A stretch of DNA of 53,236 bases from positions 1 to 53,236 of the IMG/VR virus record IMGVR_UViG_3300030098_002282. The stretch is one strand, 5' to 3'. Source of the DNA: a virus. Taxonomy: Duplodnaviria > Caudoviricetes. The notes under the pieces are model-generated. The model searched no databases and had not been told where the DNA came from. It saw nothing but the letters and a program-made list of their open reading frames with translations. A program made the position numbers and the translations under genes. Position 1 is the first letter of the stretch. Each line of letters starts with the position of its first letter. Shown one piece after another: positions 17,701 to 53,236 of the stretch.

Positions 17701-20700
17701 GACTCAACACTTGCTCTTTCAAATATACCATCTATAACCCGTTGCTTTATTGGATTAAAGCCAAATGGTGTAAGATTAGATTGCATCTGTTTAGGAAGTC
17801 TTTGTGGTTTGATAAACTTATCACTTGTTATTTCTGATGCTACAACTTTTATATCTTTTACAGGTAATGTGTAACGATGCCTAGTATTCTGACCTGTTGG
17901 ACCAACCAATTTTATTCCTCTACCTGTCCATTCCCACTTATCCCATATATCTCTTTGACCATACTGCTTAGCAGATGATTCAGGTATTATCATTTCAATC
18001 TTTGCTCTTCTCATTGCCTCTGCTTGTGCTTCAGGAGCCGCCTTGAATTGATACTTACCAAGCAATGCTCCAAATTGAGCATCAGGTGAGACTATAAAAG
18101 ATTTATTTACACCACCAGATTTGTCACCATAAGGCAACCCTTGACCAGCATTTAAAGCGTCTACTATCTCAGGTAGTGCTATTATCTCACCATCCATTGT
18201 ATGCACATAATCTTCAGCCTTACTACCAGCGTGTGTTTTTTTATTAACATCTTTAGTTAATACATATCTTATACCCTCTGGTAATAACTGATGCCCAGTG
18301 GCTTCTGAAACAAATTGGTTTACATAATTAGGGTCAGAAGGTATACCATTAGTATGCCATATTTGAGACCTTTTATTATAAGCTTTTGCTGTACTTACAT
18401 TTAAGTTTTCTAGTGTTTCAAATCCTTTCCTACTAAATGGCAATCCATTTTGACTTAAATCGTATAATATATTATTTAAATAAGACCTATCAAATAGTCT
18501 TCCAGCTTGTGCCCTGTTTAATGTGTTGGCTCTTTGAAATTTAGACATAGAAGATTTTGTTGCAAAAGCATCCTGAAACAACTCTTTCTCTCTTTCATAT
18601 AACTTCACTGATTCAGGGTCTTTCTTTTTCATTGTTTCCAGAAGTTCTTTTACAACAGCATTAGGCTTTCTTCTCTTAGTTCCATCTAGGAATTTCATTC
18701 TAGACTGTAACTTTGGGTGTTCTTTTACAAAGTAAAGCCTTTCTGCATCACCCTTACCTCCAAGATACATATACCCAGACTCAGCCATTTGCTTTGTAAT
18801 AGTAGCCATAACATTATTATACTGGGTCTCAACTTCCTTTTCCATCCATTTATCAATAGCTTCTCTTTTAGCTTTCCCTTTTAACTCACTCCATTGTCCA
18901 TGTTCTGCTTCAAGTATTCCAGCTTTAGCCTCAACTTCTTTTATTAAATCCCTTCTCCAATCAGCGAAAGTTTGTTCCTGATAATACTTCCCATTAGCCT
19001 TCTTATTTGTTGTTATATCTTGGACTATTGCATAAACAGGCTCAGTTTTAGGGTCAATTTCAACACCATATCTTTCATAATATTCTCTTTGATATGCTTC
19101 TTCTATATTCTTTACAGGTTCTCTTAATTGCTTTGCGTTTCCTGCTAAATTAACAGCATCAGGTTCTAGATTTGGATTAAGAATATTTAATCTAACATCT
19201 GGGTTGTAATCAATTTCGATATCATCATCTTTAGTTTTTCTTAATCTTTCTTTTGCTGGATTCATATCCATAACAATAGATGCAACCTGAACAGGTTTAT
19301 TATGTATCCTAGCGTTACCCCATTTTACCCAGAATGACCACTCTGGGTCTTCAGGTGACTCGACAATATTCTTTTTAAATCTTTTATTAACCCACTTTAT
19401 CATATTGACCGCAGGATTTTCAGTAGAACCTGCTTGTATATTCTCACCTACAACTTGATTCCATTTTCTATTTATCAACCTCCAAGTATCTTCCATGGCA
19501 GTCTGTGGTTCAGGTGCTTCCTTCCACTGGTCTTCTAAAAATCGCTGTACATAATGCTTTGACTTGGTAAATAAAGCCTCATAACTTTGAGATGAATCAA
19601 TTAACTCAGGACTATTCTCACCATCAGTACCTTTTCCTTCTCTGCTTTCAGTAAGTTCTTCTTCTGGTTTTCTTATCCTCTCTACTGGCTCTCCTTCGTA
19701 TATCTCTTTAGCTTTTGTTTCTGCTTCTTGCATTTCTTTCATTCTACCAAGCTGGTCTCTTGCTAGTATATAACTTATTACACCACCTTGCTCTGCATCC
19801 CTAGTAGTTATTTCTTTAACAAGGTCTTTTGTTTTTGGGTCCATAGTTTCCCAACCCTCAACTAATTCAGGTGATGCAGTACCTCTTGCACCAGTTTCAG
19901 GGTCTTTGTATTGGGTTTTCATTTTATGGAGATGTTCTATAGCTCTCCTATTTTTTATATATTGCTCACCCTGACCAAAGAAAGCACCAAGTAGATAATC
20001 ATATATTTGTTCTTCAGTAGTAGCACCTCTAAGAGTAGCAGGCAATCCCATCATAAGGGAACCTGCAATACCTTTTAAAACTTTCTCATTTACCTGTTCA
20101 CTTGTTAAATCTTTTAACTTAGTTCCGGGTATAATAGGCTTAGCACCGGGTACCCTAATTAAATTACCTATAGCTCTAAAACCTGCACCTGCTATACCAC
20201 CACCTAAAGTAGCATCTGCTACTGCGTGTATACCTTCTTGCCAAGCAGATACACCTGATGCTATACCAAGATTAACTGCACCTTCCATCATATCTCCGGG
20301 TACAGTATTCATAAATTTCTCTACTGTATTAACAGCCTCGCCTTTCTTATTAATACCCTTTTTACTAAGACCTATTGCAGTTTTCTTTATACCACCAGTA
20401 GCCCATTTACCAACCATTAATGGGACAGAATGACCTCTAAGTTTCATTAAGTTAGTAGATAGCTTACTTGCCATACCTAGTTTAGATAGGACTCTTAAGC
20501 CCGGTACATACCCTATAAAGCCACCTAAATGACCAAGACTCCTTGCTATTCTTTCATAGCTAGTACGAGGTTGTTTATCTGCTTCTCCGTGGTCTATGTT
20601 TAGTGTGGTAAAACCTGCTATCCAGCCTTTACCTGCTTGAGACATCAAGCTACCAAAACTATTTTCCCCTAATGAAGTGTCCGGGGAAGACATTTTATAA

Positions 20701-20828
20701 TGCTCAGCGTGTTCTCTAATCAACTCAGATTGAGTATAATCGAACTGATTAGGGTCGCTTTTATATTGGTCTACTAGTTGAGCAGTAGTTTGCTCATCTA
20801 TGGTAGGTTCAAAACCGTACCTTACCAT
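11715..20828 (-). CDS. Giant virion protein with a double-psi-beta-barrel RNA polymerase domain (probable virion RNAP)
   Basis: GGADLDGDKA (DxDGD at about aa 1297-1301, nt 16926-16940), preceded by VVVRVP, IIPESSAK and TMDGEII; located in the ejection-protein cluster. Confidence 0.8.
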   Translation of the reverse strand: MVRYGFEPTIDEQTTAQLVDQYKSDPNQFDYTQSELIREHAEHYKMSSPDTSLGENSFGSLMSQAGKGWIAGFTTLNIDHGEADKQPRTSYERIARSLGHLGGFIGYVPGLRVLSKLGMASKLSTNLMKLRGHSVPLMVGKWATGGIKKTAIGLSKKGINKKGEAVNTVEKFMNTVPGDMMEGAVNLGIASGVSAWQEGIHAVADATLGGGIAGAGFRAIGNLIRVPGAKPIIPGTKLKDLTSEQVNEKVLKGIAGSLMMGLPATLRGATTEEQIYDYLLGAFFGQGEQYIKNRRAIEHLHKMKTQYKDPETGARGTASPELVEGWETMDPKTKDLVKEITTRDAEQGGVISYILARDQLGRMKEMQEAETKAKEIYEGEPVERIRKPEEELTESREGKGTDGENSPELIDSSQSYEALFTKSKHYVQRFLEDQWKEAPEPQTAMEDTWRLINRKWNQVVGENIQAGSTENPAVNMIKWVNKRFKKNIVESPEDPEWSFWVKWGNARIHNKPVQVASIVMDMNPAKERLRKTKDDDIEIDYNPDVRLNILNPNLEPDAVNLAGNAKQLREPVKNIEEAYQREYYERYGVEIDPKTEPVYAIVQDITTNKKANGKYYQEQTFADWRRDLIKEVEAKAGILEAEHGQWSELKGKAKREAIDKWMEKEVETQYNNVMATITKQMAESGYMYLGGKGDAERLYFVKEHPKLQSRMKFLDGTKRRKPNAVVKELLETMKKKDPESVKLYEREKELFQDAFATKSSMSKFQRANTLNRAQAGRLFDRSYLNNILYDLSQNGLPFSRKGFETLENLNVSTAKAYNKRSQIWHTNGIPSDPNYVNQFVSEATGHQLLPEGIRYVLTKDVNKKTHAGSKAEDYVHTMDGEIIALPEIVDALNAGQGLPYGDKSGGVNKSFIVSPDAQFGALLGKYQFKAAPEAQAEAMRRAKIEMIIPESSAKQYGQRDIWDKWEWTGRGIKLVGPTGQNTRHRYTLPVKDIKVVASEITSDKFIKPQRLPKQMQSNLTPFGFNPIKQRVIDGIFERASVESFNGTKEQNTLAETLLKNPGDTKTEAQLLSNIEDIGIRQLLDLINSPAHESFATKAYNKILRINDQIVGELQSEGEMSAQDAHSLKLDAMEWQSVFDRIVQLKPDSLVPLLHKVGDSYRQSVMRNYILSQIVKPRLRNSATSRMTGYDEYLQKKLPELNENDSIFYLDEGFRDLKIHMDDGATLKLGYIWEQLQKPRLNQEVKKRFEDVLEAVVVRVPMDSLSGAHKLQFKGFTGRKGFGSVLHPRTMEALGGADLDGDKASIFFGGEKNGFKKEWREAYGSQKEEYYVKNKKTGLTEIAHNKPKDMKELLTSQDYELLDRIKTPSLRWSPLLRYQASTGAHVGRNMLGPSVVNRSSILAAYNQVRSHLEFEGKDTYYEIDRWGNIKYELTPITSKEGLKKFRKIARATVAFASDPMDEAGLKGTDVFFNAIFDSLFKMKTHHSARDGRKWTKDNEALTTQERKKAFVGIMSGINSASFGRNLETGKAHNVFDFIQSINRIKQVPKGPNERTDLSFNGKVANLTKDLDFSDSLLHRMDRAKLDNWYKNVQETLSNTDYQEIMGLLGRGSMTIPKNRPLEIVQKYDLFNVDSRKEFIWNEGFGELLSRHPDYFFNEYKRMHESPDVFSELPRVNDRVDKAMRKMGAKGNTFGLHEKKKIGRRIQWTLFGKAHNKITKGDIIELAGGVDAIPRNARKKILENIIKLAGDSLSNDMGDWASARLLKEVWNKDVIPPEQFAEYAKVVDAIQRLKSKQDKERDALEPLKDLEMDDKTKRMILELDRTIEGQTTTREMDQRQLDDAIAKYKDGMTRAESDLFDAMLISSWKRGDPEIVGRLQNAKKKIDNSKKEYGYKSYMALQRYLDTKSRQLHNTQFNRVGFASKEVGDHIIKRQLDLMEQAYEQFRYEDSGRDTRVAKQITKNLEAENKKQPLFDEGGKRTEGLAINQHDYSKKTQKYLEDYAPFSQLEQHKDVIVSSKAKKVMNEIISNMDYYGPQTRENLHLIVRDMINKDINTMTLEDWEVVNNIFRDHREGTWFQKTFAKVEGEFPKLAKRFYRMFPEAVDRDIMRHEINWNTVDTIYKDRHGNWVTGKGKTAQGWMGELQRNIHLSQEVATMENQREEREWGNLSEPYMTTELGRDLWDFAAMKFESDYMPRRLRERALTGDKLTEEYARNYERRTAEMSEKIDWENTQNRLLTLTSGVRKPARQLVEEIHQLLALKNFENHQKLVGDQKVWKEFVEKKRNKLEFYTTVDAEGNIVNTEIPVVSRKKMIKWVTDHFVNNKPFPIEKLGMDGQRKIILGMQMGQIREAERLAGDKNPIRQVLLGGLSEKLSNKKINFDTGMLGELKTVGDKPGIYGYFPHVAKHFEKGIMMGDLTKKIEIIWQSNRPVAEKKQMIAKLYMKSKQLSGDFVEADIINETWEHITDAIIKKQQGKKTNEEIKWFDNLQRIGNQFSRENHIEGWSTAPEAYLDYTQSITKTFYRNLGQILSRETINEFAKQHKDMPTDLRTSWMNYFKLYAQQSLGFPAIIPKEMFDNDKMKIKGTLYGSLADNRVATRFDQIGRKLGLVGKGKGLPPELKSLDKVSAQAVINLGNMEAKYALATLLAHPKSSIGNYLGGSQMTIVNAGFNNFIKAKKLDYLRKTIDPEFKSWEDVNRWVRELGIIEEFIIREIGANPQLTGANWQAFLKDFRRAVKKDPDLPDISFRDLMKKHNLGKGMMDVAGKFMSLPERALRRDSFIAHYIQARDKLGGRTLPKDHPYLIEMGKKGVKATQFLYSVPFRPMFAGTAMGKVISRFQLWAWNSVRYRNTIIREAALRGISQGSPEFGRFKRLMIADTLSLALGSMFMYSLFGSQMPQPYAWFQDLGDWLFGNEEERDRAFFGAYPGKLAPLQLITPPSFRLTGPILNGLINDDWEKMANYYTWTMFPFGRLARDLVGPGGLTENPYYGLDKLTGLPIVGAKRISTKRKKEEEKGTEFWTPPGMKASNYFAGTEEA

Positions 20829-22704: not shown

Positions 22705-22935
22705 CTACCTCAAATTAAATGTAGATGAATCTGACCTAATCCATCCATCTTTGTGTTTAAACTCAACATAATGTTTACCATCTTCTTTAATAACTCTATA
22801 AGTATTTAACTGAGCTTCAGAGTTTTTAGCAGATGAAGACTCCCTGTCTCCTTTGATAGACTGCTCTAACTTATTAACTCTTTCATCTAAATCTTCAAGT
22901 TCCATTTTTATTGTAGGGTCGTCTACTCTACTCAT
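22705..22935 (-). CDS. Small virion-associated hypothetical protein
   Basis: Coupled to the nozzle gene. Confidence 0.6.
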   Translation of the reverse strand: MSRVDDPTIKMELEDLDERVNKLEQSIKGDRESSSAKNSEAQLNTYRVIKEDGKHYVEFKHKDGWIRSDSSTFNLR

Positions 22936-25900
22936 ACTTTACTACTCCTCGCTTTAATAGGTCTTAAGTGAACTCCTATAGACTCTAAAGTCCTTTGTCC
23001 ATTATCATCCACAACCTGTACCTGTAGAGACTTAGACTTTCTATCACTCGAAGATACCCGATTAGAAGTTAATGTTTGGAAAGAACTATTACTAGCATTT
23101 TTATACTTAGTTACAAGACCTGAACTACCCTCAGTATGAATCTCAGAAAAAGACTTATCGTAAGTATCAAAACCAGCAGTGATTTTCTTTGATTGAAACT
23201 CCCAAGCTTTTCTAGTAGAACTAGTCCCTATTTGCATTAATTTTCCGTCTGATGCAATTATCTCTCCAAACTTACCTTGAGTAATAGACTTTACTTTATT
23301 AACAAAAGTCCAGAAGTCCCACCTTCTGGTCATCACACTATATACCCAAGCGTATGATGAATTGCTAACTTCAAATATTACCATTAAGGCTTTTCTTTCT
23401 CCATCAAATGCTAACATAGGTGGAGAGGTTTCAAGAGATGTGCTTATACTATCCCAAGTAAAGTTTGTTAAATCTGTATTGTCTGAGCTATATATAGGGG
23501 TGCTAATTATCTTAGAAGCTTTGCCATTGTGTAAATAAACTCCGTACTTATCTGCAAAAAACATTCCATAATCGGTTGCTATTATACTTTTTTGACTCAA
23601 TGCACCAGCACCTTCCATTTTGTCTATAATTGATAAGTTATTAGGGTTTATTGCATAGATATTTGACTCTGTAAAAGCATACAATATATTATTATACGAC
23701 TTTAATGCAGTAGGCTTGTCTTGTAATGCACAATATTCATTAGCCCAATTAAAGACACTAAACTTACCTGCTTTGCTTCTAAATATATAGTTGCCAACAT
23801 TAGTTATTTCTGGATTATTAGCATCTCCAACAAATAAATACCCAGCACATTGTTCTGATATTTTATATGACAACCAATTCGTCGTCATAGCTGGTGATAT
23901 ACCAGTTAAAGCTTCGTAAGAACCAAAGTTTTTTCCTTTTTGGTCTTTTACAACATATTCTACATAGCCATTACTACCACTAGACCAACCACTATTATCT
24001 AGAGACACAGATTCAACTAGTTGATAATCTAAATCAGGTTCAGTGGCACTTCCATCAAAAGCCTTACCTCTATATATATTTATATGAGACAACCTCGGTG
24101 ATACCTTATCAGGTAAGAGTCCAATAGTTATCTTATGACCATGTTTAAATGGATTGTTACTAGCATTAGAATACAAAGTTTCACCTAAACAACTTTCTTG
24201 ATACCCATCATAAAGCATAGATATCCTATAGAAGTTTTTATAGTAATGTGAGTTATCATCTTTATCAGTACCATCAGGTAATAAATTAGAGTTATCTTTC
24301 TCACCTGCTCCGTCAGCAATAGCAACAGTAATAGAACTTAATACATCTATCTTACTCCAACTAGCAGTTTCAGCAACATCCCCTACATCATCAAGGTAAA
24401 AGCAACTAAATGATAGACTTGTTGTTACTGCTATCCAATCAAAATCTGAAGCTGTATCGTTATAATTAAGTGTCTGAGATGGTCCTTTCCAATCGTTTAT
24501 ATTCTCACTAGGTGTATACTTTTTCCTTGATATAGAAGAGTTTAAAAAGACCCGTCCATCTAAATCATTTTGATTTAATTTGCTATTATTTAAAGTTAAT
24601 AAATCATAGAATATCACAGAGTCTTTTTCTGTACATACTATTCCCCTTGGCTGAAGTATTGTTGTATTAGGCATAAATGAATTAATACTTGACAAGCCAG
24701 TATATTGCCCACCATCACCGTACCACTGCATACTTAGTTCTTCACTTCCGTATGAACCTGAGATTGATACATCTATCTTAGTGTCAATATCAACACTTGA
24801 ATTGTTTAATGCAATTCTTTTTATACCTGCATATGAAGTACTGCTTTCAGGTTGCCAAGATTCGCTATCAGTGTAAACTTCGATATGGGCACCTAATGCA
24901 GTTGTCTTGGTATCTTGTTTTATAAATGGTCCTATTTGTTTATATCTATAAATCACGCCTTGACCATCACTATTACTAGAAGGGCTCTCAGTGTCATATG
25001 TATGCGAATAATCTTCATTTTCAAAAGTATTAAAAACCCAAGGTATAGCTACAGCAACTGTTTCAGAGCCTGATTTATTACTATATAAAAATAATCCTTT
25101 TGGATGTATTGCCTTCTTCAGTCTCCAATCTGGAGTATTACTTCCGTAAATCTCTTGCTGACTGTAACCTTCACCACCAGTTCCTTGACCGGGGTCTGAG
25201 GTGTTTTCATACCACCATTCATCGTGTAAATATCTAAACCAATAAGCATCTACTTCAGCGTTATTACTATTATCACTTGTTTGAAATGGTCCAGTTATAT
25301 TAGTAAACTCAATAGCAGTGTAACCAATATCTGGGAGACTACCGGGTGCACTTGTTATGTCAGTGCTTCTCCATAAATACTCTGTTTTATGATTACCTAT
25401 ACCAAATGATTTCTCTTCCCAAGAAGCGTCACTATCATAATAATTTGATGAAGAAGCTAGGACATAAACGAAACCATCAAGTACTAATACATCACTAAGC
25501 TTTACAGTATCATTCATAAATGGCGTAGCTAAAGTAGAACCTGAAGCACTTGTTAATTTATAGCTTCTATTACCACTCAAAGACATAGCTGTTCCACTAG
25601 CACCTATTGTATATTTTTTTAAATGATAGTCAGATACATTGTCATATAATACCCAAATATCAGTATTTGTTTCGTGGTCAAGATATATACCACAAATTGT
25701 TCCACCAACATTTAGACTGCTTTCTACTCCATCTGAACGATTGGCTTTTAATAACCAAGAACTTCCTTTAACATACCCAACTATTAATTGAGATGAGGAA
25801 GTTAAATCTATATTAGCATCTTCTGCATCATCACTACTAGGTGCAGGAAGACAAAACTCCTCAAAGGCAGGCAAAACTGATGTACTAACAGATATAGCAC

Positions 25901-26858
25901 CATTAGTTAATAGAAAAGTTTCACCCATATCTCTACCAAATTGTTTCACATTTGGATACCCCATATATAATGGTTCATTTTGTGGACCTATCCCTGCAAA
26001 AGTATCATCCCCTCTAGTAGCAAATGTAGGTTCATTTTTTACTGCATTTTGATAAGGTAAATAAGTTTGACTCGAAGGATAACTTTTAGCTTCTGCTTTT
26101 ACAGAATACACATCTTCAAGCATAGAAAATGCTTCTTGAGACTTGTCCCATCCTAATATATTATGTGCTCCATTTTTATTTATTCTAGTCATTTTATCAG
26201 CACTGTACTCTCGTATAGGAAATCCAGTAAAATTCCAATGTATATAACTACCTGCTTGCATAGCAGTATTTTGGTCTATTCCAGAAAAATAAAACTCTAA
26301 GCCATGCATATATGCTTTACCACTACCAAATTTTTCATTACTAGCATCGTGGCTTAGGACACTCGTGCTTCCATCATGAAGTTGGCAAACATAAGAACAA
26401 TAAGCGTCTACTTTAGCAGTACCTGATATAGCAGAATTATGAATACCTGCGGTTCCTGACCCATTATCTATTGTAAATTTCTTAACTGAATCACCCTCAG
26501 TTCCTGTAGTTATAGCGGTTACTCTACCTATGAATCCATTATTATTACTTGTTACGGAATTACTAGCTCCAGTTGCACCATCACCGCCATTTGAAGAGTA
26601 GATATAATCACCAACCCATATAGGCACACCTTCAGTTGAATCACTAAAAGTACCATCTCCTTCATCTTTTCTAAGTGTCACGGTTGAAGACCCACCTTGA
26701 AATTGAAGAAAGTATTGAGCGTCCCAATTCTTTATAATTACACCAAAAGTCTCATTAGTACCTGTTGCTGTAACTCGAACTTGGTAATCTATTTTTCTAG
26801 AACCTGTATATGTACCAGATAATTTTAAGTTGGCAGGATTAAAATTAGACTTAGGCAT
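22932..26858 (-). CDS. Tail nozzle/stabilisation protein (tail tubular B or P22 gp10-like)
   Basis: Beta-rich; C-terminal propeller-like motifs (YIFRSK, LYAFTESNIY, MFFADKYGVY, WEFQSKKI); position before the ejection genes. Confidence 0.6.
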   Translation of the reverse strand: MPKSNFNPANLKLSGTYTGSRKIDYQVRVTATGTNETFGVIIKNWDAQYFLQFQGGSSTVTLRKDEGDGTFSDSTEGVPIWVGDYIYSSNGGDGATGASNSVTSNNNGFIGRVTAITTGTEGDSVKKFTIDNGSGTAGIHNSAISGTAKVDAYCSYVCQLHDGSTSVLSHDASNEKFGSGKAYMHGLEFYFSGIDQNTAMQAGSYIHWNFTGFPIREYSADKMTRINKNGAHNILGWDKSQEAFSMLEDVYSVKAEAKSYPSSQTYLPYQNAVKNEPTFATRGDDTFAGIGPQNEPLYMGYPNVKQFGRDMGETFLLTNGAISVSTSVLPAFEEFCLPAPSSDDAEDANIDLTSSSQLIVGYVKGSSWLLKANRSDGVESSLNVGGTICGIYLDHETNTDIWVLYDNVSDYHLKKYTIGASGTAMSLSGNRSYKLTSASGSTLATPFMNDTVKLSDVLVLDGFVYVLASSSNYYDSDASWEEKSFGIGNHKTEYLWRSTDITSAPGSLPDIGYTAIEFTNITGPFQTSDNSNNAEVDAYWFRYLHDEWWYENTSDPGQGTGGEGYSQQEIYGSNTPDWRLKKAIHPKGLFLYSNKSGSETVAVAIPWVFNTFENEDYSHTYDTESPSSNSDGQGVIYRYKQIGPFIKQDTKTTALGAHIEVYTDSESWQPESSTSYAGIKRIALNNSSVDIDTKIDVSISGSYGSEELSMQWYGDGGQYTGLSSINSFMPNTTILQPRGIVCTEKDSVIFYDLLTLNNSKLNQNDLDGRVFLNSSISRKKYTPSENINDWKGPSQTLNYNDTASDFDWIAVTTSLSFSCFYLDDVGDVAETASWSKIDVLSSITVAIADGAGEKDNSNLLPDGTDKDDNSHYYKNFYRISMLYDGYQESCLGETLYSNASNNPFKHGHKITIGLLPDKVSPRLSHINIYRGKAFDGSATEPDLDYQLVESVSLDNSGWSSGSNGYVEYVVKDQKGKNFGSYEALTGISPAMTTNWLSYKISEQCAGYLFVGDANNPEITNVGNYIFRSKAGKFSVFNWANEYCALQDKPTALKSYNNILYAFTESNIYAINPNNLSIIDKMEGAGALSQKSIIATDYGMFFADKYGVYLHNGKASKIISTPIYSSDNTDLTNFTWDSISTSLETSPPMLAFDGERKALMVIFEVSNSSYAWVYSVMTRRWDFWTFVNKVKSITQGKFGEIIASDGKLMQIGTSSTRKAWEFQSKKITAGFDTYDKSFSEIHTEGSSGLVTKYKNASNSSFQTLTSNRVSSSDRKSKSLQVQVVDDNGQRTLESIGVHLRPIKARSSKV

Positions 26859-29931: not shown

Positions 29932-32900
29932 TTATTCAAATACGAAGGTTACTAAAAATTGGTCTACTGCTGTGCTATTTGGGTCGATACTGAATCGCAA
30001 TGCATTCCCTTTTGCTATAGACAACCCAGAAGCAATATTCACTGTAGACCCTGATGTAAAGTTTTTTACATATGAGGTAGTAGTAGTAGCTGAACCAGCA
30101 ACAAATACACTATATGTAGTAGCTACTTCCACTTTAAATGTGCAACCAGTGACAGCAGTCTCACTTGTGACATATAAAGCTCTTAATGTAGTTGGGAATG
30201 GAGCGACCCAAGTCATTTGGGTTTTTAAATCTGAAGTAGTGGCTACGCTTGCACTAGCTACACCACCCACAGCAAACGGCATATTCTTCTCAGTAGAAGT
30301 TCCTTTCCAATCCGAAGAAGCATTTATCATAAATGGATAAGCACCGTCAACTGATAAAGCACCTTCCACCTTTAAATCTTCTTTTATTGTTATATCACAA
30401 TCTTGGTCAATAACAAATGCTGTAGTACCACCTGCATCCCCAAGTTTTAACTTATCAGAATCAGAGCCATCGTTATACAACTGCCAAGCCATTGTATCTT
30501 CTTGGTCCCATTGCAGTATAGCATCATAATTATTATCTGCATTTGACTGTATTTTTAAATATGTGTGGTCAGTTTTAACTCTACCATCTACTACAACATC
30601 ACCTGTAAATGTAGCTAATCCATTGCCTTTAATAGTATGAAGAGTAGTTCCCTCTTGATTATCAACCATAAAAGCATTGTAGTTATTACTGTTAGGAGCA
30701 CCTTTAATAAAAAATCCGTGTCCAGTTGTACTACTATTATGAACACCACCACCATATTGCCCTGCCAAAGACCCTTCGACATCTAAAATTCTTATAGGAG
30801 TTTTTCCTATCCCAATGTGACCAATAGAATTAATCGTTAACCTTTTTGCACAATCCCCACCAAATGCCTTTGTCCAAAAGGTCATTTCTGAGCCTTGTTC
30901 TCCACCTGTAGAAGAACCCTGTACATTTGAAACCTGAATCCTAGCTACACCTTCACCACTTCCACCCCAGTAATTAACTCCACTAGCATAGTAGTTATGT
31001 TCATTTCTCCATAGAATATTTCCAATAGCAACATCAGAACCATTGGTGTTTCCAACTAACTCTATAGTTCCTGCTGTATTTGAAGCTGATGACCCAATTT
31101 CTAAAACATTGCTAATACCTACACCATACGCAGTACCTAAAGGTTCTCTACCAATACCAACATCTCCTGCGGCTGAAACGGTCAATATATGGTTAGCTCC
31201 ATAATGTCCTATAGTAACTAGGTTTGCATCAGCACCTGAAGATGAAAATTTATAGCCTATATATCCACTATTTTTTGATGATTCAGCTTGTCCAAATAAA
31301 TGTATATTGGTTTCACCTGAAGCCAAATTCGGACTCATTGAAGATGACATCCAATTAAAAGTATCACTAGCAGAACCTTGTATTCGTAAAATTTCAGTTC
31401 CATCACCACCAGTACCTCGCAAATCCAAAATAGCTGTAGGTGACTGAGTTCCAATTCCTAGTGAACCTCCATCAAGAAAAGAGTCACCACCTGCATGGAT
31501 TCTCACCTTATGTGCAGGGGTGCTATCATTCATATCTATAACTGCATTACTGCCACTTGTCGATAAAACTGTCTTACCTGCATCTGAATTAGCTGTAATG
31601 TTGTCATCAGTTACTATATCACCTGTGAAAGTAGCTTTTTGATTCGCATCCAATGTAAGGGCAGTAGTTGATGCTGTTGTAAATATAAAAGAATTAGGAC
31701 CAGTGCCATCGTTTACATGATGATATTTTATTGAACCTACTGAAGTCGCACCTTCTCTTGAAAAAACTAGAGTACCCGACTTGTTTGCAGGAGTCCATAT
31801 TGATAATCCAGAATCACCACTTCCTTCAATAATCAATTCATCAGCACTAGTATTGGCGGCACTTGTAATACCTGAATCGCCTGTAAAAATGTGAAGTTTT
31901 GCAAGGGGGGTGTCTTCGCCCAATCCCAGATTTCCTCCAGTAAGATAAGAGTTTCCATCAGTAGATAAGCGTACTCGTGTAGTCCCGTTTTGATCTTTCA
32001 TATAATACCAAGCACTACCACTAGAATCATTGTAAAGCAAGAATATATCTTGGTCTGATGAATTAGATATAACTAAAGGAGATGTCGAAGTTCCAGAAGC
32101 TTTTATTTCAAGTCTATAAGCAGGGCTTGGCGTTCCAATACCTAAATTTTGACTAGCATTAATTGTTAAGGCATCTGAACCATTACCACTTCGTAAAGTT
32201 AATATACCATCTGAATGTTGAGTACCAAGCTTCATAGTCTTGGTGTTGTACTCGTAAAAAACATTTGCACCATTCAAATCACTTGTAGAACCAAATACAA
32301 TAGTTGATGTATGACCTGACGATTCCCCTGCCAATATAGATAATCCTGCATCTGCATTATTTCTAATAACTAACTCATCGCCATCACTATCAGGAGTTCC
32401 ACTAACTGTTCCATTGCCACCTACGATGTCTATTTTACCTGCTGGTGACGAATTATTGATCCCTAAATTTCCTCCATTTAAATAAGAATCACCTTCAGTG
32501 TCAAAATTAACTTTTGCAGAACCATCGCTATCAGTTATATACATAGCACCATCGCCACCAACTGTGTTAAAAGTCACTTGAGAACTTCCACCTAAAGTAA
32601 ATCTAACTTCACCATTTACACTTAAAGCGTGACTAGGAGTTGAGGTTCCAATACCGACTTTGCCCTCAACAATAGATAATCTTTTTGTGCTTGAATCATT
32701 TACTCTTGTACTTAAAAATAAAGAACCATCTTCCGTTCCATTAGTCACATCTGCTGATTCTGCGTGAATACCTGCATATCCAGTTGAATTTCCAGCATCA
32801 TCATCACCAAGCCAAGTTATGTGACCCAGCTCATCTCCGTCTGCTGGACTTGCTGAATTTTTATTAAATTTAAGACCGGGTGCATTTACATCTGCGTTAG

Positions 32901-34161
32901 TATTCTCAATTATTACATATGGGTGTTCTGACCCTGCGGATTTTAAATGTAGCATTGATGAAGGACTCGTAGTACCAATCCCGACATTTCCACTAGCGTC
33001 TATGTACATTCTTGTATTATGAGTAGAACCATCAGCAGTTGTTTGAAATGCTATTGTCCCTTCAGAAGAAGTACCACCTCTTGAAATCAGATTGGTAGTA
33101 CCTTGATTCATATTTAATTGTGCATATTGGTCTAGGGCATTTTGAGAATCACCAGCCCTTGAAATCTTAATGCCATCTCCAGCATTATTTGCTCCTATTA
33201 TAAATAGATTTGCACTTGTAGCTGTACCTGATGACTCAACTCCAATCATCATTTTACCATTACGAAATGAGTAAATACCTGCATCAATGTAAAACTGCAT
33301 TCCATTGGCATTGTTATAACTGTTGAAGTATCCCCATCCATTGTCATCATAGCAACCAGTTAAAACATAATTATCACCAGAGCCGTGTATCTTTAATCTT
33401 TTGTTCACTCCTTCAGCCGTTAATGGTGTACCACCCTGTATTAAGGCTCTTCCTTCGTCATCTATAGTAAGACCTGTATATAGTTGATAAGCACTACCAT
33501 TATGACCTTTTGTAATGAGACTTAAATTTGTGGCATAAGCACCATCATCTCCTGCTGTGCATTTGACATATGCAGTAGCACCATCGCTTCGTCTATCAAA
33601 TGTTAGTGAAACATCATTCCCTTCTGCCCCAGTATCTTTGTGAATAATAATTCCAGTATTGACTCGTAAGCTAGTACTAGTATCGTTCCCTGCTGTTCCT
33701 ACCTGAAGACCATTTGTATCTATTTTTGCTTTGTATACGCCCCCAACTTCCCATTCGCAATATTTATTTGCAGGAACATTAAGTCTTATATTGTCTGCAC
33801 TTGTACCTCTTATGTATACACCATCATTTCCTGTGCCTACATTGTTTAAATATACAAATCCATCATCTTTTGAGACTGTTATATTTCCATAAAAATTAGC
33901 ACTTTGGTCACTACTAAGGTTTAATGCTGTATCGCTACTTGACCCTGTATAAAAGTTTATATGTTCGTTGTCTGAAATTATTAAACGAACACCACCTGAA
34001 CCTTTTAAGTCTATCTGACCATCTGTAAACGCAAGGTAAGTTCCTGTATCGTCATTGTGATATAACTTATTTGGAATACCTAAATTACCAGTAAGCGTAC
34101 CACCAGAAGTAGACAAACTGTCATCATCACCTGCTAATAATACTCTTTTCCAAGTAGCCAT
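29932..34161 (-). CDS. Long tail fibre / receptor-binding protein
   Basis: G/S/T/N-rich; about 8 G-x-[VLI]-G-[IL]-G-x(2-3)-P repeats. Confidence 0.8.
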   Translation of the reverse strand: MATWKRVLLAGDDDSLSTSGGTLTGNLGIPNKLYHNDDTGTYLAFTDGQIDLKGSGGVRLIISDNEHINFYTGSSSDTALNLSSDQSANFYGNITVSKDDGFVYLNNVGTGNDGVYIRGTSADNIRLNVPANKYCEWEVGGVYKAKIDTNGLQVGTAGNDTSTSLRVNTGIIIHKDTGAEGNDVSLTFDRRSDGATAYVKCTAGDDGAYATNLSLITKGHNGSAYQLYTGLTIDDEGRALIQGGTPLTAEGVNKRLKIHGSGDNYVLTGCYDDNGWGYFNSYNNANGMQFYIDAGIYSFRNGKMMIGVESSGTATSANLFIIGANNAGDGIKISRAGDSQNALDQYAQLNMNQGTTNLISRGGTSSEGTIAFQTTADGSTHNTRMYIDASGNVGIGTTSPSSMLHLKSAGSEHPYVIIENTNADVNAPGLKFNKNSASPADGDELGHITWLGDDDAGNSTGYAGIHAESADVTNGTEDGSLFLSTRVNDSSTKRLSIVEGKVGIGTSTPSHALSVNGEVRFTLGGSSQVTFNTVGGDGAMYITDSDGSAKVNFDTEGDSYLNGGNLGINNSSPAGKIDIVGGNGTVSGTPDSDGDELVIRNNADAGLSILAGESSGHTSTIVFGSTSDLNGANVFYEYNTKTMKLGTQHSDGILTLRSGNGSDALTINASQNLGIGTPSPAYRLEIKASGTSTSPLVISNSSDQDIFLLYNDSSGSAWYYMKDQNGTTRVRLSTDGNSYLTGGNLGLGEDTPLAKLHIFTGDSGITSAANTSADELIIEGSGDSGLSIWTPANKSGTLVFSREGATSVGSIKYHHVNDGTGPNSFIFTTASTTALTLDANQKATFTGDIVTDDNITANSDAGKTVLSTSGSNAVIDMNDSTPAHKVRIHAGGDSFLDGGSLGIGTQSPTAILDLRGTGGDGTEILRIQGSASDTFNWMSSSMSPNLASGETNIHLFGQAESSKNSGYIGYKFSSSGADANLVTIGHYGANHILTVSAAGDVGIGREPLGTAYGVGISNVLEIGSSASNTAGTIELVGNTNGSDVAIGNILWRNEHNYYASGVNYWGGSGEGVARIQVSNVQGSSTGGEQGSEMTFWTKAFGGDCAKRLTINSIGHIGIGKTPIRILDVEGSLAGQYGGGVHNSSTTGHGFFIKGAPNSNNYNAFMVDNQEGTTLHTIKGNGLATFTGDVVVDGRVKTDHTYLKIQSNADNNYDAILQWDQEDTMAWQLYNDGSDSDKLKLGDAGGTTAFVIDQDCDITIKEDLKVEGALSVDGAYPFMINASSDWKGTSTEKNMPFAVGGVASASVATTSDLKTQMTWVAPFPTTLRALYVTSETAVTGCTFKVEVATTYSVFVAGSATTTTSYVKNFTSGSTVNIASGLSIAKGNALRFSIDPNSTAVDQFLVTFVFE

Positions 34162-44249: not shown

Positions 44250-45749
44250 TTACATCGTCATCCAGTCAAGTACTTTCTTTCCAAATCCTTCTTGTTCATC
44301 TATTTTAACAAATTCTTTTCTCCTGCTTGGTCTTGAACCATCTAAAGCAGTCCATACTGCATCCATTACATCGTCATGCTTACCTCTAGGATATGATAAA
44401 AACTCTGATTGTGCCTCAATATCTTGAGGTCTAAAGAAAAATTGTTTTTTTGCAAGAAGTGGGACCATCGAAAGTAATCGCTCTGATTTTCTATTTCTGG
44501 GTTTAACGCCTTTCTCCAGTCCGGGGATGTATAATCCTTCTTCTTGCATTTGTTTTCTAACAGCACTTCTTAGTGCTTCTTGATAGGCAACGGTTTCTAT
44601 TTTCATTCTTTTGGGTTTATATTTTTTATATTGCTTAATAATAGCATCAGGTTGTTCAGCAGGGTCGATTTTTGTTCTAACCAAGTTTATCATATAGACA
44701 TTACCCTCGTTACATATCCCTAATGTTGCAATAACAAAAAAGTCAGCTTTCAATGATAGGGAAGATGCTGGGTCTACACCAGAGTATACTGCTACTGGTT
44801 TCAACTCTTCCTTATCGTCAGGTAATTTTTTAACAAGTAGAGCCTGTCCATCTCTAATCTCAAAATCATAATGATGTATCTGGATGTATTCAGGTTTAAA
44901 TGGAGAATCTTCAGGAGACTGTGCTATATTCATATACTCCTGATAGAAGCCATTAAGATTACCTACACTGGCAAACTCGTCTTTTATTTGTAAAATTCTC
45001 TCTCTAGGGAATCTTGCTTCCCATAAGCTTTTTTCGTCATCATCCCATATAGAATACCACAGAACATCCCAAGCAGGTGATTCTTTAGCCCAGCATAAAA
45101 AACAATCTTCTGAGATAACTGTGCCAATCATCGCAATTCTACCATCATCGCTTAATGATGGTATAACCGCTTCGGTTATCCATTTACGGTTCTTAGCTCT
45201 AGCTTCAGGAGTAAATGCGTTCAGCTCTGATTCAAAATCGTCAATAATGATGAGATTAGGTCTAGTGTCACCCTCAATAAATCCCCTAACTCGTTGACCA
45301 GTGCCCACAGCAATAATACGAGCACCATTTGCAAGAATAATATCATTATTAGTCCACCTACGAGCAGTGGAAGGACCCATGTCCCCAAAGTTTTCTGAGA
45401 AGGTTTTAGAATGTGAAAGATGATATTTTATCCTAGAGAGAAAGTTGACAGATTGGCTTTGACTTTCTGATATAATAACGATGAATAAGTCTTCATCTTC
45501 GGATTTAAATGCGACCTTCCATAAGGGGTAAATGAGAGAAACAGTAGTAGACTTAGCAGTGCCACGGGGAGCCGCAACCAAAAGCCTCCGCTTAGCCTCA
45601 TTCCTAAGATGGGAATATAGTTCAGTGTGAAAAGGAGGAATATCCCTGTTAAGAGCAGTAGGGAAACACACTTTCCCAAAAAGACCAATACTTTCCCTAA
45701 ACTTCTTAAGAACCTGAAGTTTCTGATATTTCTCCTCGTAATTCTCCAT
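44250..45749 (-). CDS. terL: Terminase large subunit
   Basis: Walker A APRGTAKST, Walker B IIIDDFE, nuclease GVDPA and HDDVMDA. Confidence 0.95.
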   Translation of the reverse strand: MENYEEKYQKLQVLKKFRESIGLFGKVCFPTALNRDIPPFHTELYSHLRNEAKRRLLVAAPRGTAKSTTVSLIYPLWKVAFKSEDEDLFIVIISESQSQSVNFLSRIKYHLSHSKTFSENFGDMGPSTARRWTNNDIILANGARIIAVGTGQRVRGFIEGDTRPNLIIIDDFESELNAFTPEARAKNRKWITEAVIPSLSDDGRIAMIGTVISEDCFLCWAKESPAWDVLWYSIWDDDEKSLWEARFPRERILQIKDEFASVGNLNGFYQEYMNIAQSPEDSPFKPEYIQIHHYDFEIRDGQALLVKKLPDDKEELKPVAVYSGVDPASSLSLKADFFVIATLGICNEGNVYMINLVRTKIDPAEQPDAIIKQYKKYKPKRMKIETVAYQEALRSAVRKQMQEEGLYIPGLEKGVKPRNRKSERLLSMVPLLAKKQFFFRPQDIEAQSEFLSYPRGKHDDVMDAVWTALDGSRPSRRKEFVKIDEQEGFGKKVLDWMTM

Positions 45750-49720: not shown

Positions 49721-50484
49721 TAGATTTAGTTGAGTGGGCTGTTAGGGCTTTTCCTAATAGTCCACCCTCTAAGTTTAAAAAAATGAAGAAAGCTCAGCTA
49801 TGGGCTATCTATTTTAGCAAACGAAACCGAAATAAAGGAGGTGTAAATGCAGTAATATGAAACATATAATAATCCGCATTTCAGTCTTATTTATTTGTTT
49901 AGTCATCCATAGTCTTATGACTTATGGTTAATGAAAAGGGGGCTATTTTGTCCCCTTTTCTATTCTGGGGGAGTATAAGTATCGAGTCCTCCGAGACCTC
50001 ACATAAGAACATATTTTTATTCCCCCTAAAATTTGTATCGGGCTCTCAGACAGTATACTGAGCAATGGGATGAAGGCTACGCCAGAACCATTAAACAAAG
50101 TTACTGTGGTTACCATTGATAGCCAAAACACGCCTTATACACTCTTTCCCCTTGCACCAGTCTCGAGATTTTTGGTGTAGGGGGAAAGTGCTATATTTTT
50201 TTTGTACATTGGGGCAAGTATGCCCAGCAAGTCAAAAGTTTAATTTTGTCCTGTAAACGAGTGCTAGGGTTTTTATTCATGTTCCCTAGCATCCCTGAGA
50301 CATCCATATATAACTGTAGGTTTATTTATTTCCCTACTATCGGATGATTCTCAATTGTAGTGGTCAGTCAAGTGTACACGACTCAACTCCGTAAGCGAGC
50401 CACTACAAGATTTAAAAGGTTGGCGAAAGTATTATGTGGATTCATTGAAATTATTCAACACATAATGTTAGTAGCCAATCTTTT
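49721..50484 (+). ncRNA. Array of about 10 stem-loops (candidate sRNA cluster or processed leader)
   Basis: Consecutive inverted repeats whose mismatches mostly read as G-U pairs on the + strand. Confidence 0.55.
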
Positions 50485-50513
50485 ACCGGATAGATTTTCA
50501 TTAACAAGTACAA

Positions 50514-50696
50514 GTGAAAAGGAGGTTTGCTATGAGTAAACCAAAGTTCTCTAAGAGAACACCAACTGAGTTAACTGTGAAGGGTCTTCAAGAGAAGTTC
50601 CCAGATATTGTTTGTGGTGTAGTATCGTATAACAATGGAAAAGTAGCAGTTATAATCCCTAACGGTAGAGTCATTTTTGACTCTCGCCATAAATGA
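50514..50696 (+). CDS. Hypothetical protein (probable start at the internal MSKPK)
   Basis: AAGGAGG RBS before the ATG at 50532. Confidence 0.7.
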   Translation: MKRRFAMSKPKFSKRTPTELTVKGLQEKFPDIVCGVVSYNNGKVAVIIPNGRVIFDSRHK

Positions 50697-50890
50697 GTAA
50701 GGTAGACGAGGCTCTTGATAATATAAAAAAAGAGCTAGAGTTTATGGGTTACTCAAAAGATAAGGCAATTGAATTAGTTAAAAAAGATATAGATGAGGCA
50801 AATAGAATAATTGAAGAGTATTATGAAGAAATAGAAATGATGATAGATAATCATATTAATTCAATGGTCGATATCCGTAAAGGAGGTTAA
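50693..50890 (+). CDS. Hypothetical helical protein
   Basis: ATGA overlap; LEFMGYSKDKA resembles a UBA/RuvA-C-type helix-turn. Confidence 0.65.
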   Translation: MSKVDEALDNIKKELEFMGYSKDKAIELVKKDIDEANRIIEEYYEEIEMMIDNHINSMVDIRKGG

Positions 50891-50891
50891 T

Positions 50892-51107
50892 ATGGAAACA
50901 TTACTTATGATTCCATTAACTGTAACTTTAATTATTGTTGCACTTATGCTAACAATAGTCTTTCTTGTTTTTAAACTTACTTATCTACGAGATAGGATGA
51001 GATGGTGGAGAAGAGAGGCTATGAAATTAAATGGTAAGGTAGAAAAAGATAATAATAACTATTTAAAGAATAAAGCGAGGGCATGGTGGCTACGGAACCA
51101 AAGTTAG
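50892..51107 (+). CDS. Small membrane protein
   Basis: AAGGAGG RBS; N-terminal TM helix. Confidence 0.7.
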   Translation: METLLMIPLTVTLIIVALMLTIVFLVFKLTYLRDRMRWWRREAMKLNGKVEKDNNNYLKNKARAWWLRNQS

Positions 51108-51400
51108 AAGGTAAAGGTGAAAACTATGAAGTTAGACAAATTTCATGGTTTAAAACAAAAAAGGTCACTATTAGTGGCGAAAGAAGAGAAGTTCCTATAT
51201 TATGGGAAAAGAGACTGATTGGTATTTATCCAACATACGATGAATCGTTATTTATCTTGAGAAGGACTCAGGGTAATTACAGGAAGGAATGCGGAAAGCA
51301 AGGAATAAAACCAATTGCTCGATTTACCATTAGGAAGACGGGCTTAAAGCCCACAACCAGTAGCGTAGGAAACTACCTACAAAGCACAGGAGGTCATTGA
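51083..51400 (+). CDS. Hypothetical basic protein, coupled to the Ubl gene
   Basis: GAGG RBS; its TGA overlaps the Ubl ATG. Confidence 0.65.
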   Translation: MVATEPKLEGKGENYEVRQISWFKTKKVTISGERREVPILWEKRLIGIYPTYDESLFILRRTQGNYRKECGKQGIKPIARFTIRKTGLKPTTSSVGNYLQSTGGH

Positions 51401-51654
51401 TGGCTGAAGTACGCTATATGGCATACCACACAGGTGGTGTTCCTAAGACTGTAGATGCGTCTACCCCTGCTGAGATTGCTGAAAAAGAAGGATTTGGCAT
51501 TGACGATTCGCAAGTTGCGATTTATGTCGGTGGGAAATCTGCGACAGCTAATACTCGTCTTAAAGACGGGCAAGTTGTTTCTTTTCAGAAAGCTAGGCAA
51601 GAGTCTGGGAATGATAAGGTAAAAACTTATCTTGTCAAAATCCGAAGAGGTTAA
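51400..51654 (+). CDS. Ubiquitin-like (beta-grasp, ThiS/MoaD-type) protein, 84 aa
   Basis: AGGAGG RBS before the ATG at 51400; VAIYVGG...TRLKDGQVVSF matches the ThiS/MoaD pattern VAVNG...L.DGD.V.h; ...QESG70 followed by a 14-aa tail ending RRG; directly upstream of E2/JAB/E1. Confidence 0.8.
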   Translation: MAEVRYMAYHTGGVPKTVDASTPAEIAEKEGFGIDDSQVAIYVGGKSATANTRLKDGQVVSFQKARQESGNDKVKTYLVKIRRG

Positions 51655-51676
51655 CTAGTAACTTCTTCATATAATC

Positions 51677-51718
51677 GAACACGGGGGGCTGGGAAACAAT
51701 AACCAGCCCTCACGGTTC
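51677..51718 (+). promoter_or_regulatory. Stem-loop between Ubl and E2 genes
   Basis: GGGCTGG-gaaacaataa-CCAGCCC core with outer GAAC/GTTC pairing; no U tract. Confidence 0.5.
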
Positions 51719-51740
51719 ATAAAATAAAAGGAGGACAGAA

Positions 51741-53236
51741 ATGTTCCAATACAATCCAAAAGAATATGAAAGAATAACAGACCCAGAATATATAATAAAA
51801 TGTACCTACTATAATGAAGAACATAAGGTAACAATGAAGAGATTTATAGTAGAAGCTTTCAAAGAAACAAATAAAGACTTTCCGTTTGAAGATTTCTTAA
51901 ATGAATATGAGTTTCTATATGATGACATAAGAGAGCAAGTCTTACTTATTATTAGAGGAGCTAGACTTAGGCTTCGTAAATATTTTCATTTACCACCTAT
52001 TTATATAGCTTTCCCTATGACTGATGCTATGTCTCTTAATTGGGAACCTCAAATGTCTAGGTACTTACAAAAAATGGCTCCAATAGGTTTTCTTAACGAA
52101 GAAAGCAAGGAAGATGCTTATAAGCTATCTGAACATCCTTTCTCAGTATTATATCATCCACATATTGACTCAATGGGCTTTGCCTGTTATGGTAATTGGG
52201 GTGAAATCATACTAGAATGCACTGGTGCTTATCAAATAATAGAGAACTTAAGAGGATTTGTAAATGACTATAATGGTAGAAGTACTTTCTATACTGTAAA
52301 TCCCTATGCTTTTGATAGGAAAGAAAATATCAATACCTATTATGACCATTTTCAATTTCCTCAGCGTATAAATTCATTTGTTGCTTGTGGTTATCCTAGA
52401 ATTTGGCAATCTTGGTCTTCAATTATAGAAGGTGTCTTCGGAAATAATTGGATACTAGAAATGTGTGAAGAATTATCTCTTAATTATGAAACAATGAATT
52501 GGATACATAATTATATCACATATATAGATAAAAATGGTGCTAGCACAAACGACTACTATTCAATATTTGATGATTTTGTTAAAAATGGTGGAATAGAAGG
52601 AGTAGAGTATTATCAATATCCCGGTGACCATAAAGATAGTGAAGGAGAACGAATAAGGTATAACGAAGATGAATGGGAAATAGAAATGAAGAAATATAAG
52701 AAATACGAAGAAGTAAAGAATACTCACACTCCACAGTCTTTTAGTAACTATGTAGGTTTATGGCTACAGAGTAAAATTGGTTACAATTTTTCTAAAGGTG
52801 ATTTATCTGCTATAAAGCATGGATTAAAAAGTTGGGTATCAATAAATCTAGAGCGTGATGTAAGATACACAGAAAAGTATACTAAATGGAAAAGTAAAGA
52901 CCCTCAAGGATTCAGAATACATGGTATGCTGGAAACTATGGGAACTAGAACATTAGATTCAGATGGACCTAATTTTCTAAGCTCGGACTATGCTTCTCTG
53001 GTTTTTCTTTTAGCTAGTAATAGTAATATAGACCAGATTTTGAAAACTCTTTTCAATTTTGAAGATAAAGCAAGAGATTCATTACCAAATGATTCGTATC
53101 ATACGGCGATGAAAGAGGCAAAAATGGCTTCTGCTCATAAATACTCTCTATTAGAAGAAAAGAAAATGCTTACACCGAATATGAGCTTTGAAAATGGAAA
53201 GTTCTATCACAGTCATAATTCTTTTGATTTTAGATA
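51741..53236 (+). CDS. E2/UBC-like conjugating enzyme with a large C-terminal extension, 5' part (continues through the junction into 1-777; 706 aa total)
   Basis: AAGGAGG RBS; no stop codon found by manual translation; LYHPHIDSMGFAC149YGNW aligns with the canonical E2 motif IYHPNINSNGSICLD, with Cys 8 residues after the third HPx residue. Confidence 0.8.
   Translation, partial: MFQYNPKEYERITDPEYIIKCTYYNEEHKVTMKRFIVEAFKETNKDFPFEDFLNEYEFLYDDIREQVLLIIRGARLRLRKYFHLPPIYIAFPMTDAMSLNWEPQMSRYLQKMAPIGFLNEESKEDAYKLSEHPFSVLYHPHIDSMGFACYGNWGEIILECTGAYQIIENLRGFVNDYNGRSTFYTVNPYAFDRKENINTYYDHFQFPQRINSFVACGYPRIWQSWSSIIEGVFGNNWILEMCEELSLNYETMNWIHNYITYIDKNGASTNDYYSIFDDFVKNGGIEGVEYYQYPGDHKDSEGERIRYNEDEWEIEMKKYKKYEEVKNTHTPQSFSNYVGLWLQSKIGYNFSKGDLSAIKHGLKSWVSINLERDVRYTEKYTKWKSKDPQGFRIHGMLETMGTRTLDSDGPNFLSSDYASLVFLLASNSNIDQILKTLFNFEDKARDSLPNDSYHTAMKEAKMASAHKYSLLEEKKMLTPNMSFENGKFYHSHNSFDFR
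53085..53236. repeat. Terminal direct repeat, right copy
   Basis: CCAAATGATTCG...TTTTAGATA, same as 1-152. Confidence 0.95.

Follow-up and report, generated by a model that had tools for sequence, protein, structure and literature searches.

The IMG/VR virus record IMGVR_UViG_3300030098_002282 (53,236 bp, from a marine phage, completeness estimate 99%) was analysed over its whole length and is referred to below as the window. It encodes a ubiquitin-like protein (Ubl) of 84 amino acids (aa) together with a large middle protein, a JAB metalloprotease and an E1-type activating enzyme. We consider it likely that the 84-aa protein is a ThiS/MoaD/SAMP-like ubiquitin-fold precursor with a C-terminal cap, which would be uncapped at the internal residue Gly70 by the JAB protease, charged by the E1 and handed over to the middle protein. 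The idea that Gly70 is the true end of a pro-protein was put forward in a preliminary description of this DNA and is well supported by both the homologue comparison and the fold.

Gly70 is the invariant glycine of the Ubl family

The open reading frame (ORF) for the Ubl lies on the plus strand at 51400–51654, with its ATG at 51400 and the sequence AGGAGG 6 nucleotides (nt) 5′ of it. The core of the protein, residues 1–70 (51400–51609), consists of a predicted β-grasp and a flexible stretch that runs up to an invariant Ser69-Gly70, as judged from an AlphaFold2 model, fold matches and a homologue alignment. It ends in ...VVSFQKARQESG, with the Gly70 codon GGG at 51607–51609. After Gly70 the ORF continues with the 14 residues NDKVKTYLVKIRRG, a C-terminal tail which, together with the stop codon, occupies 51610–51654 and which we propose to be a removable cap. 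The tail closes with a second glycine, Gly84 (codon GGT at 51649–51651), directly before the stop codon TAA (51652–51654). The preliminary description had given these residues and coordinates for Gly70 and for a 14-aa tail ending in Gly84, and they agree with the ORF.

Thirteen Ubl homologues of 50–89 aa came from a word-indexed search of 5.8 billion proteins. When 1.84 billion representatives were scanned in full with HMMER, seven matches reached E ≤ 0.001, four of them small proteins with 31–63% identity. The other three, the long proteins P0016 (1214 aa), P0017 (1521 aa) and P0019 (639 aa), were read, set aside as repetitive-protein matches and excluded from all counts, and the truncated sequence P0013 (50 aa) was excluded as well. 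P0017 contains a repeated unit of ≈50 residues similar to part of the Ubl, namely the helix and the third strand (47% identity over residues 15–67, E = 9.9e-9), and was treated as a chance repetitive match.

Viral loci (n = 93) were compared in the same way, 15 of them found via the Ubl and the rest via JAB, using the best 80 of 211 IMG/VR stretches that encode a JAB relative. The Ubl profile matches 67 of the 93 loci. In the 26 misses the JAB gene sits within ≈1.8 kb of the 5′ end of the locus, and they are explained by this position because there is no space there for two upstream genes. The window, 38 distinct locus sequences and the protein-search matches were pooled into a set of 54 sequences with 48 distinct C-termini.

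Ser69-Gly70 is invariant in 16/16 aligned homologues, and nothing beyond Gly70 can be aligned. In the pooled set a Ser-Gly stands at the aligned Gly70 position in all 54 sequences, corresponding to 48/48 distinct C-termini, whereas a C-terminal Gly is found in only 4 of the 46 non-empty tails. Tails of 0, 1, 2, 3, 4, 7, 8, 9, 10, 14 and 19 aa are seen in 2, 20, 9, 1, 1, 1, 1, 6, 2, 4 and 1 variants, respectively (n = 48). Tails of 0–2 residues are thus found in 31/48 variants, and the tail sequences are unrelated. When tails of equal length were compared, their identity was mostly far under that of the core: the window and locus L016 share 83% of the core and 21% of the tail, and the window and P0002 share 82% and 57%, respectively. 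The reverse, a tail slightly more conserved than its core, was seen in 2 of the 22 compared pairs.

Judged by this comparison of sequences, the internal position of Gly70 is not a matter of chance. The preliminary description had proposed to ask the homologues which glycine is invariant, and the answer is Gly70 and not Gly84. Its alternative, in which Gly84 is used, and the likeness it saw between the tail end 'IRRG' and the LRGG of ubiquitin both fail, given the 4/46 tails that end in Gly.

Predicted fold of the Ubl

AlphaFold2, run with a 16-row alignment, gave a Ubl model with a mean predicted local distance difference test (pLDDT) score of 78.5, with strands at residues 2–7, 16–20, 39–43, 46–48 and 59–64 and a helix at 23–30. 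No secondary structure was predicted past residue 64, and pLDDT was below 50 at residues 69–75 and 82–84. Gly70 sits six residues beyond the last strand (59–64). The ESM Atlas has its own model of this exact protein, for which 9/10 structural rows end at residues 67–73 and the tail is coil. Two independent structure predictions therefore let the β-grasp end at ≈64–70 and leave residues 71–84 disordered.

Foldseek returned chains of a ubiquitin variant and of SUMO at E ≤ 0.001, with ThiS and TtuB next at ≈2e-3. When solved chains of ThiS, MoaD, SAMP1, CysO, TtuB and BubA were superimposed with VIA-align, their C-termini landed at Ubl residues 66–70. A profile of the Ubl family searched against the PDB gave a weak match to Thermus ThiS 2cu3 (E = 0.038) in a register that sets Gly70 at the ThiS C-terminus. 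The Ubl combines a β-grasp fold with a conserved Gly after the last strand, as expected for a member of this group, and the models and the ThiS register uphold the earlier ThiS/MoaD-like reading in which the β-grasp ends at Gly70. A ubiquitin-style register would make 'TYLVKIRRG' the last strand; it was rejected, since the two models put the last strand at 59–64 and the tail in coil.

A conserved block with a JAB protease and a ThiF-type E1

The gene order is the same, Ubl, middle protein (456–734 aa), JAB and E1, in each of the 67 loci whose upstream DNA is long enough. The Ubl thus shares its conserved block with a JAB that has a complete JAMM motif and with an E1 that has an invariant Cys. 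For the first 15 loci the block could be read further, as a 105-aa ORF, the Ubl, a protein of 663–731 aa, JAB, E1, a Sak4-type ATPase, a protein of 203–213 aa and a primase-helicase.

The JAB/JAMM metalloprotease of the window (707–1636, plus strand, ≈309 aa from a conserved Met) matches Pfam family PF14464 with E = 4.9e-6 and 26.8 bits (cut-off 25). Numbered by the ORF from 701, its residues Glu26 and His93-x-His95-x7-Ser103-x2-Asp106 are invariant in 9/9 aligned sequences, and the HxHx7Sx2D pattern by which JAMM proteins are recognised is present in 65/65 distinct JAB relatives. A search of the PDB with the JAB profile gave no matches.

The E1 (1572–2339, plus strand, ≈255 aa from a Met that matches the homologue starts) is of the minimal ThiF type, and its ORF overlaps that of JAB in a different frame. 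It matches PF00899 (E = 2.2e-10) over profile positions 23–205 of 238, and both the ThiF domain and the ATP site are present. All homologues are single-domain ThiF proteins of 247–258 aa. The sequence GLGGIGS is found together with an invariant Cys in P-C-T-M-K-H-T; GxGGxG occurs in 62/63 E1 sequences and the Cys motif C-[TS]-x-K-H-T in 63/63.

The middle protein is possibly E2-like

The middle protein of 706 aa is split by the ends of the record. Its N-terminal 498 aa are encoded at 51741–53236 (plus strand) and include HPH at residues 139–141, Cys149 and then a helical region; its C-terminal part is encoded at 1–777 (plus strand). Related loci show one uninterrupted ORF of 663–731 aa, and the region searched is 100% identical in an intact 706-aa form, P0021. 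A single ORF of 456–734 aa occupies this position in every locus.

Ubiquitin-conjugating (UBC) enzymes carry a strand of the form PP-x-hydrophobic, an HPN motif and a catalytic Cys within about 8–10 residues. The motif in P0021 resembles this signature: 'LPPIYIAF' precedes H139-P-H141, and C149 follows after seven residues. An HPN-type motif with its Cys is therefore present, except that the third position is His and not Asn. The pattern H-[PS]-H-x(4-12)-C occurs in 48/48 distinct middle proteins, and in a 30-sequence alignment (A7) the H, H, C and G of HPH...C-x-G are invariant.

The AlphaFold2 model of the middle protein (mean pLDDT 86) has a helix at 49–55, four or five strands within 57–92, a loop with HPH and Cys, and helices at 153–174, followed by ≈480 residues of helices. 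This order of predicted secondary-structure elements is compatible with a UBC fold. The one independent E2 lead came from an Atlas feature search, in which Prok-E2_D was found on 11% of the members of one cluster. Taken together, the protein is possibly E2-like.

The middle protein is also the fastest-evolving gene of the block, with 24–32% identity as against 55–78% for JAB and E1. In more distant loci the middle-protein profile no longer matches and the HPH...C motif is still present.

Proposed mechanism and alternatives

The Ubl would be uncapped, adenylated and transferred, as suggested by three features: an invariant Gly on a flexible C-terminus, a JAMM protease that is always present and intact, and the invariant Cys of the E1. 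By analogy with BilC/BilA and BubCD/BubAB, described below, the JAB metalloprotease would cut after Gly70 and remove the disordered cap 71–84. The minimal ThiF-type E1 would adenylate Gly70 and probably pass the Ubl to its own invariant Cys. From there the 706-aa protein could take over the Ubl through the invariant Cys in its HPH...C motif, and the target may be chosen by the helical, fast-evolving C-terminal part of this middle protein.

Several results weigh against this cascade. The Ubl itself matches no Pfam family (0 families at E ≤ 0.01, and so no PF02597 ThiS hit) and no PHROG family, and its nearest folds are those of sulfur carriers. The E2 assignment of the middle protein draws on its motif, on how the secondary-structure elements follow one another and on a single language-model lead. 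Pfam searches with nine N-terminal segments at E ≤ 10 gave no UQ_con or Prok-E2 family, and PF14460 was not found in the window. A PDB profile search with the middle protein gave only a chance-level match to influenza PA, and a profile search of the 5.8 billion proteins gave P0026 and no further relatives. With the whole 706-aa model, Foldseek (PDB and BFVD) and the wide VIA-align search listed no E2, their lists being filled by the helical part, and in VIA-align residues outside 220–345 and 448–680 were barely tested. Finally, two genes lack a tail altogether (the DNA was checked), each being one codon apart from a close relative with a one-residue cap. With two such lineages, processing is not obligatory in the Ubl family.

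The main rival is a role in sulfur transfer, which we regard as unlikely. In that case the Ubl, once uncapped by JAB and adenylated by the E1, would become a thiocarboxylate and give its sulfur to a nucleic-acid base or a small molecule, and the middle protein would be a sulfur-using enzyme. Capped carriers paired with a JAB protease are known from CysO/Mec+ and QbsE/QbsD. The phage proteins share several features with the carriers ThiS, MoaD, CysO and TtuB and their ThiF/MoeB-type E1s. TtuB, MoaD and CysO are the best VIA-align matches of the Ubl, its nearest feature clusters in the ESM Atlas carry ThiS (PF02597), and there is the weak ThiS 2cu3 register. The small E1, with its single ThiF domain, and the failure of fold and profile searches to find an E2 fold in the middle protein also fit this explanation. 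However, the protein modifiers SAMP1 and BubA score nearly as high as the carriers, and the Ubl ends in a single Ser-Gly and not in Gly-Gly. No sulfur-mobilising or sulfur-using partner was found either: Pfam and PHROGs gave no rhodanese, cysteine desulfurase, ThiG, MoaE, CysM or TtuA-like gene among the 19 neighbouring proteins of the plus-strand block. In addition, the invariant HPH...C-x-G in a large, fast-evolving, Cys-bearing protein of 456–734 aa is less expected of a conserved biosynthetic enzyme than of a thioester carrier with an adaptor for targets.

It is less probable still that the Ubl is left unconjugated, either as a non-covalent adaptor or regulator of JAB and E1, or because the E1 adenylates another substrate as MccB does, with the Ser-Gly kept for binding. 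MccB, a peptide-adenylating enzyme, is indeed the top PDB profile match of the E1 (E = 9e-5), before Citrobacter BubCD (2.8e-3) and ThiF (4e-3), but this match is limited to the Rossmann part (profile positions 15–73). Moreover, an invariant Gly that ends a flexible stretch past the last strand is a hallmark of activated Ubls, and it co-occurs with the invariant Cys of the E1 and the intact JAMM site in every locus.

That Gly84 is the functional C-terminus of an unprocessed protein, with the tail as part of its mature form (e.g., as one more strand with an 'RRG' end resembling that of ubiquitin), is very improbable: the tails of the window, L016/P0010 and L058 do end in Gly, and the tail has an alternating, strand-like pattern, but this is at odds with the rarity of such ends among the capped variants, the many tails of 0–2 residues and the predicted disorder, and in the window and L016 the GGT-TAA lies in a predicted hairpin stem, which offers a nucleic-acid reason for the common GGT.

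Comparison with Bil, Bub and other systems

In the Bil system, BilC takes a one-residue cap, Ala98, off BilA after Gly97 and also deconjugates (PMC10557695), and overhangs of 2–9 aa are given for 12 BilA homologues (10.1101/2023.09.04.556158). In the Bub system, BubAB is a fusion of Ubl and E2, and BubCD uses its JAB domain to cleave it directly after Gly229 (PMC11601596). For the phage proteins TAPI and TAPK, removal by JAB of the sequence beyond the Ubl Gly was predicted by Iyer et al. (PMC1779556).

The phage module shares with Bil the order Ubl, (E2-like), JAB and E1, equal to bilA-B-C-D, and a conserved Gly capped by extra residues, which JAB removes in Bil and would remove in the phage. 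Its invariant Cys residues suggest thioester chemistry, as in Bil. Unlike the Bil E1, which has an IAD-AAD-CYS architecture, the phage E1 is a single-domain protein of ≈250 aa, and the middle protein is 456–734 aa long with a putative E2 fold. Furthermore, Bil is an antiphage defence operon of bacterial genomes, whereas the present module is found in a virus record.

Type I Bub (6E.1) has the same order of the four modules. Its E1 is of the minimal homodimer type, and BubCD is among the PDB matches of the phage E1 (see above). JAB cuts right after the conserved Gly in BubCD/BubAB, and the JAMM residues reported for BubCD, E28/H91/H93/D104, have nearly the same positions as E26/H93/H95/D106 in the phage JAB. 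In contrast to the fusions BubAB (Ubl-E2) and BubCD (JAB-E1), the four phage proteins have a gene each, and the tail is followed by a stop codon and then an 86-nt spacer. Bub uses Tyr/Ser oxyesters, whereas the phage E1 and middle protein keep an invariant Cys. DUF6527/BubE was not among the 19 neighbouring proteins in the Pfam scan.

The lambda/T1 proteins TAPI and TAPK (JAB) also comprise a phage Ubl with a conserved Gly at the β-grasp end and extra sequence, the removal of which by JAB was predicted (PMC1779556). However, they belong to a tail module and have no E1, whereas the genes of the window stand among early replication genes and come with an E1 and a putative E2.

The phage module resembles Bil and Bub in its proposed working and falls under the definition of neither. 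PADLOC models gave no detectable similarity beyond weak matches in the Rossmann region. Our literature search brought up no account of a Ubl/E1/JAB module of this type encoded by a phage, although viral members may be listed in the supplementary tables to the Bil and Bub papers, which lay outside the search.

Hairpins in the tail DNA and the role of the cap

RNAfold predicts two hairpins in and at the end of the tail-coding DNA (51608–51668, plus strand), between the Gly70 codon and the next gene. The first, GATAAG...CTTATC at 51613–51631, lies within the tail codons, and the second, at 51644–51668, contains the Gly84 codon and the stop codon. Locus L016 has a different sequence there and the same folding round its own GGT-TAA, the pairing being kept through different flanking bases.

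In relatives this place is taken by different palindromes; one of them, TTGACTTTTAAAGTCAA, translates to 'TFKV'. The 'TFKV' common to the 9-residue tails is explained by this, as it is a translated palindrome (TTGACTTTTAAAGTCAA, TTAACTTTTAAAGTTAA or GAACTTTTAAAGTTC) with arms that change in a compensatory way. A palindrome (TT)GACTTT-T-AAAGTC(AA) was located in the tail codons of L003 (1100–1129), L006 (6211–6240) and L008 (1814–1843), with arms that co-vary between loci. The palindrome in the tail codons may be an operator or an RNA hairpin.

The spacer between the Ubl gene and the gene that follows contains a further, strong hairpin (51681–51714, plus strand), just 5′ of the ribosome-binding site of the 706-aa gene, and its loop GAAACAATAA is conserved. 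Four compensatory stem variants of this hairpin (window/L016, L002, L003 and L013) all keep the pairing. Rfam gave no match in 50400–52000, and a scan for promoters and terminators gave nothing of note where the Ubl gene ends.

The sequence of the cap may thus partly reflect hairpins and palindromes of the spacer from the Ubl gene to the next gene, read in frame before a stop. The tail looks like spacer DNA that is translated up to a stop codon and would be harmless through trimming by JAB. The cap is probably tolerated rather than regulatory, and not a tuned switch, because two lineages are tail-less, one-residue caps flip by point mutation and JAB is always present. This weakens the earlier suggestion that the tail licenses conjugation as a control step, the tail being absent in 2/48 variants, one residue long in 20/48 and different by one codon between close relatives.

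The 105-aa ORF and the phage genome

A conserved 105-aa ORF of unassigned function precedes the Ubl gene (51083–51400, plus strand). Its stop codon TGA shares one base with the ATG of the Ubl, and by this stop/start overlap the two genes are translationally coupled. Of the first 15 loci, 12 have it 5′ of the Ubl gene, and the other three are truncated at or near their 5′ end. We considered this ORF, which ends in 'GGH', as a second Ubl and rejected it; the 'GGH' end is not conserved.

The module sits in the early replication/recombination block of a phage genome of lytic type. Very large ORFs lie on the minus strand, at 11715–20828 (3037 aa), 29932–34161 (1409 aa) and 22932–26858 (1308 aa). 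A terminase-like ORF (44250–45749) has ≤28% identity to any cultured phage, and no close cultured relative was found. The ends of the record, 1–150 and 53087–53236, repeat each other with few mismatches, and the record has the IMG/VR class 'linear'. This imperfect overlap implies that the record is circularly permuted or terminally redundant, with the 706-aa gene split over its ends.

Distribution and significance

A search with strict JAB patterns found no relatives in 185,579 species genomes. With tblastn, JAB matched 40 GenBank phage records, including the Flavobacterium phages FpV4 and Fpv3 and the crAss-like Bacteroides phages DAC15, DAC17, the PhiCrAssBcn series, cr111_1 and cr85_1. Five records (L017:2856–6867 of FpV4, L018:3044–7164 of DAC17, L097, L098 and L099) encode a primase, a protein of 210–290 aa, a protein of 373–444 aa, JAB and ThiF. 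The JAB of these five records is annotated 'metalloprotease domain', and their JAB and E1 are matched by the profiles of the window family with E-values of 1e-17 to 5e-20. The motif Y-M-H-S-H...C is present in the two proteins that were read, of 394–420 aa, from FpV4 and DAC17.

All five proteins of 210–290 aa have an N-terminal domain of ≈80 residues that ends in an invariant Ser-Gly and is followed by a second conserved domain, a hint that they may be Ubl-fusion precursors. Homology of these FpV4 and crAss-like proteins to the Ubl was not supported (hhalign E-values of 0.088–0.38, no hmmsearch match). The cascade may be present in diverged form in FpV4 and the crAss-like Bacteroides phages.

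More broadly, and tentatively, many uncultured marine phages (211 IMG/VR stretches) might carry their own complete thioester-type conjugation cascade within the early replication block, made up of a capped Ubl, a giant E2-like protein whose target-binding part evolves rapidly, a JAB protease and a minimal E1. It could tag host or phage proteins during infection and so be a viral weapon and not a bacterial defence.

Capping of Ubl precursors and their trimming by JAB are already documented in Bil and Bub, and capping itself is not new. What is new is the setting in phage genomes, beside replication genes and conserved over many viral contigs, and the combination of a minimal ThiF-type E1 and invariant Cys residues with a very large, fast-evolving middle protein, which fits neither Bil nor Bub. 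The comparative data also supply a ready experimental construct, Ubl residues 1–70. If the module conjugates proteins, it would place ubiquitin-like tagging on the virus side of the phage-host conflict, and the search for its targets would naturally begin with the variable part of the middle protein.
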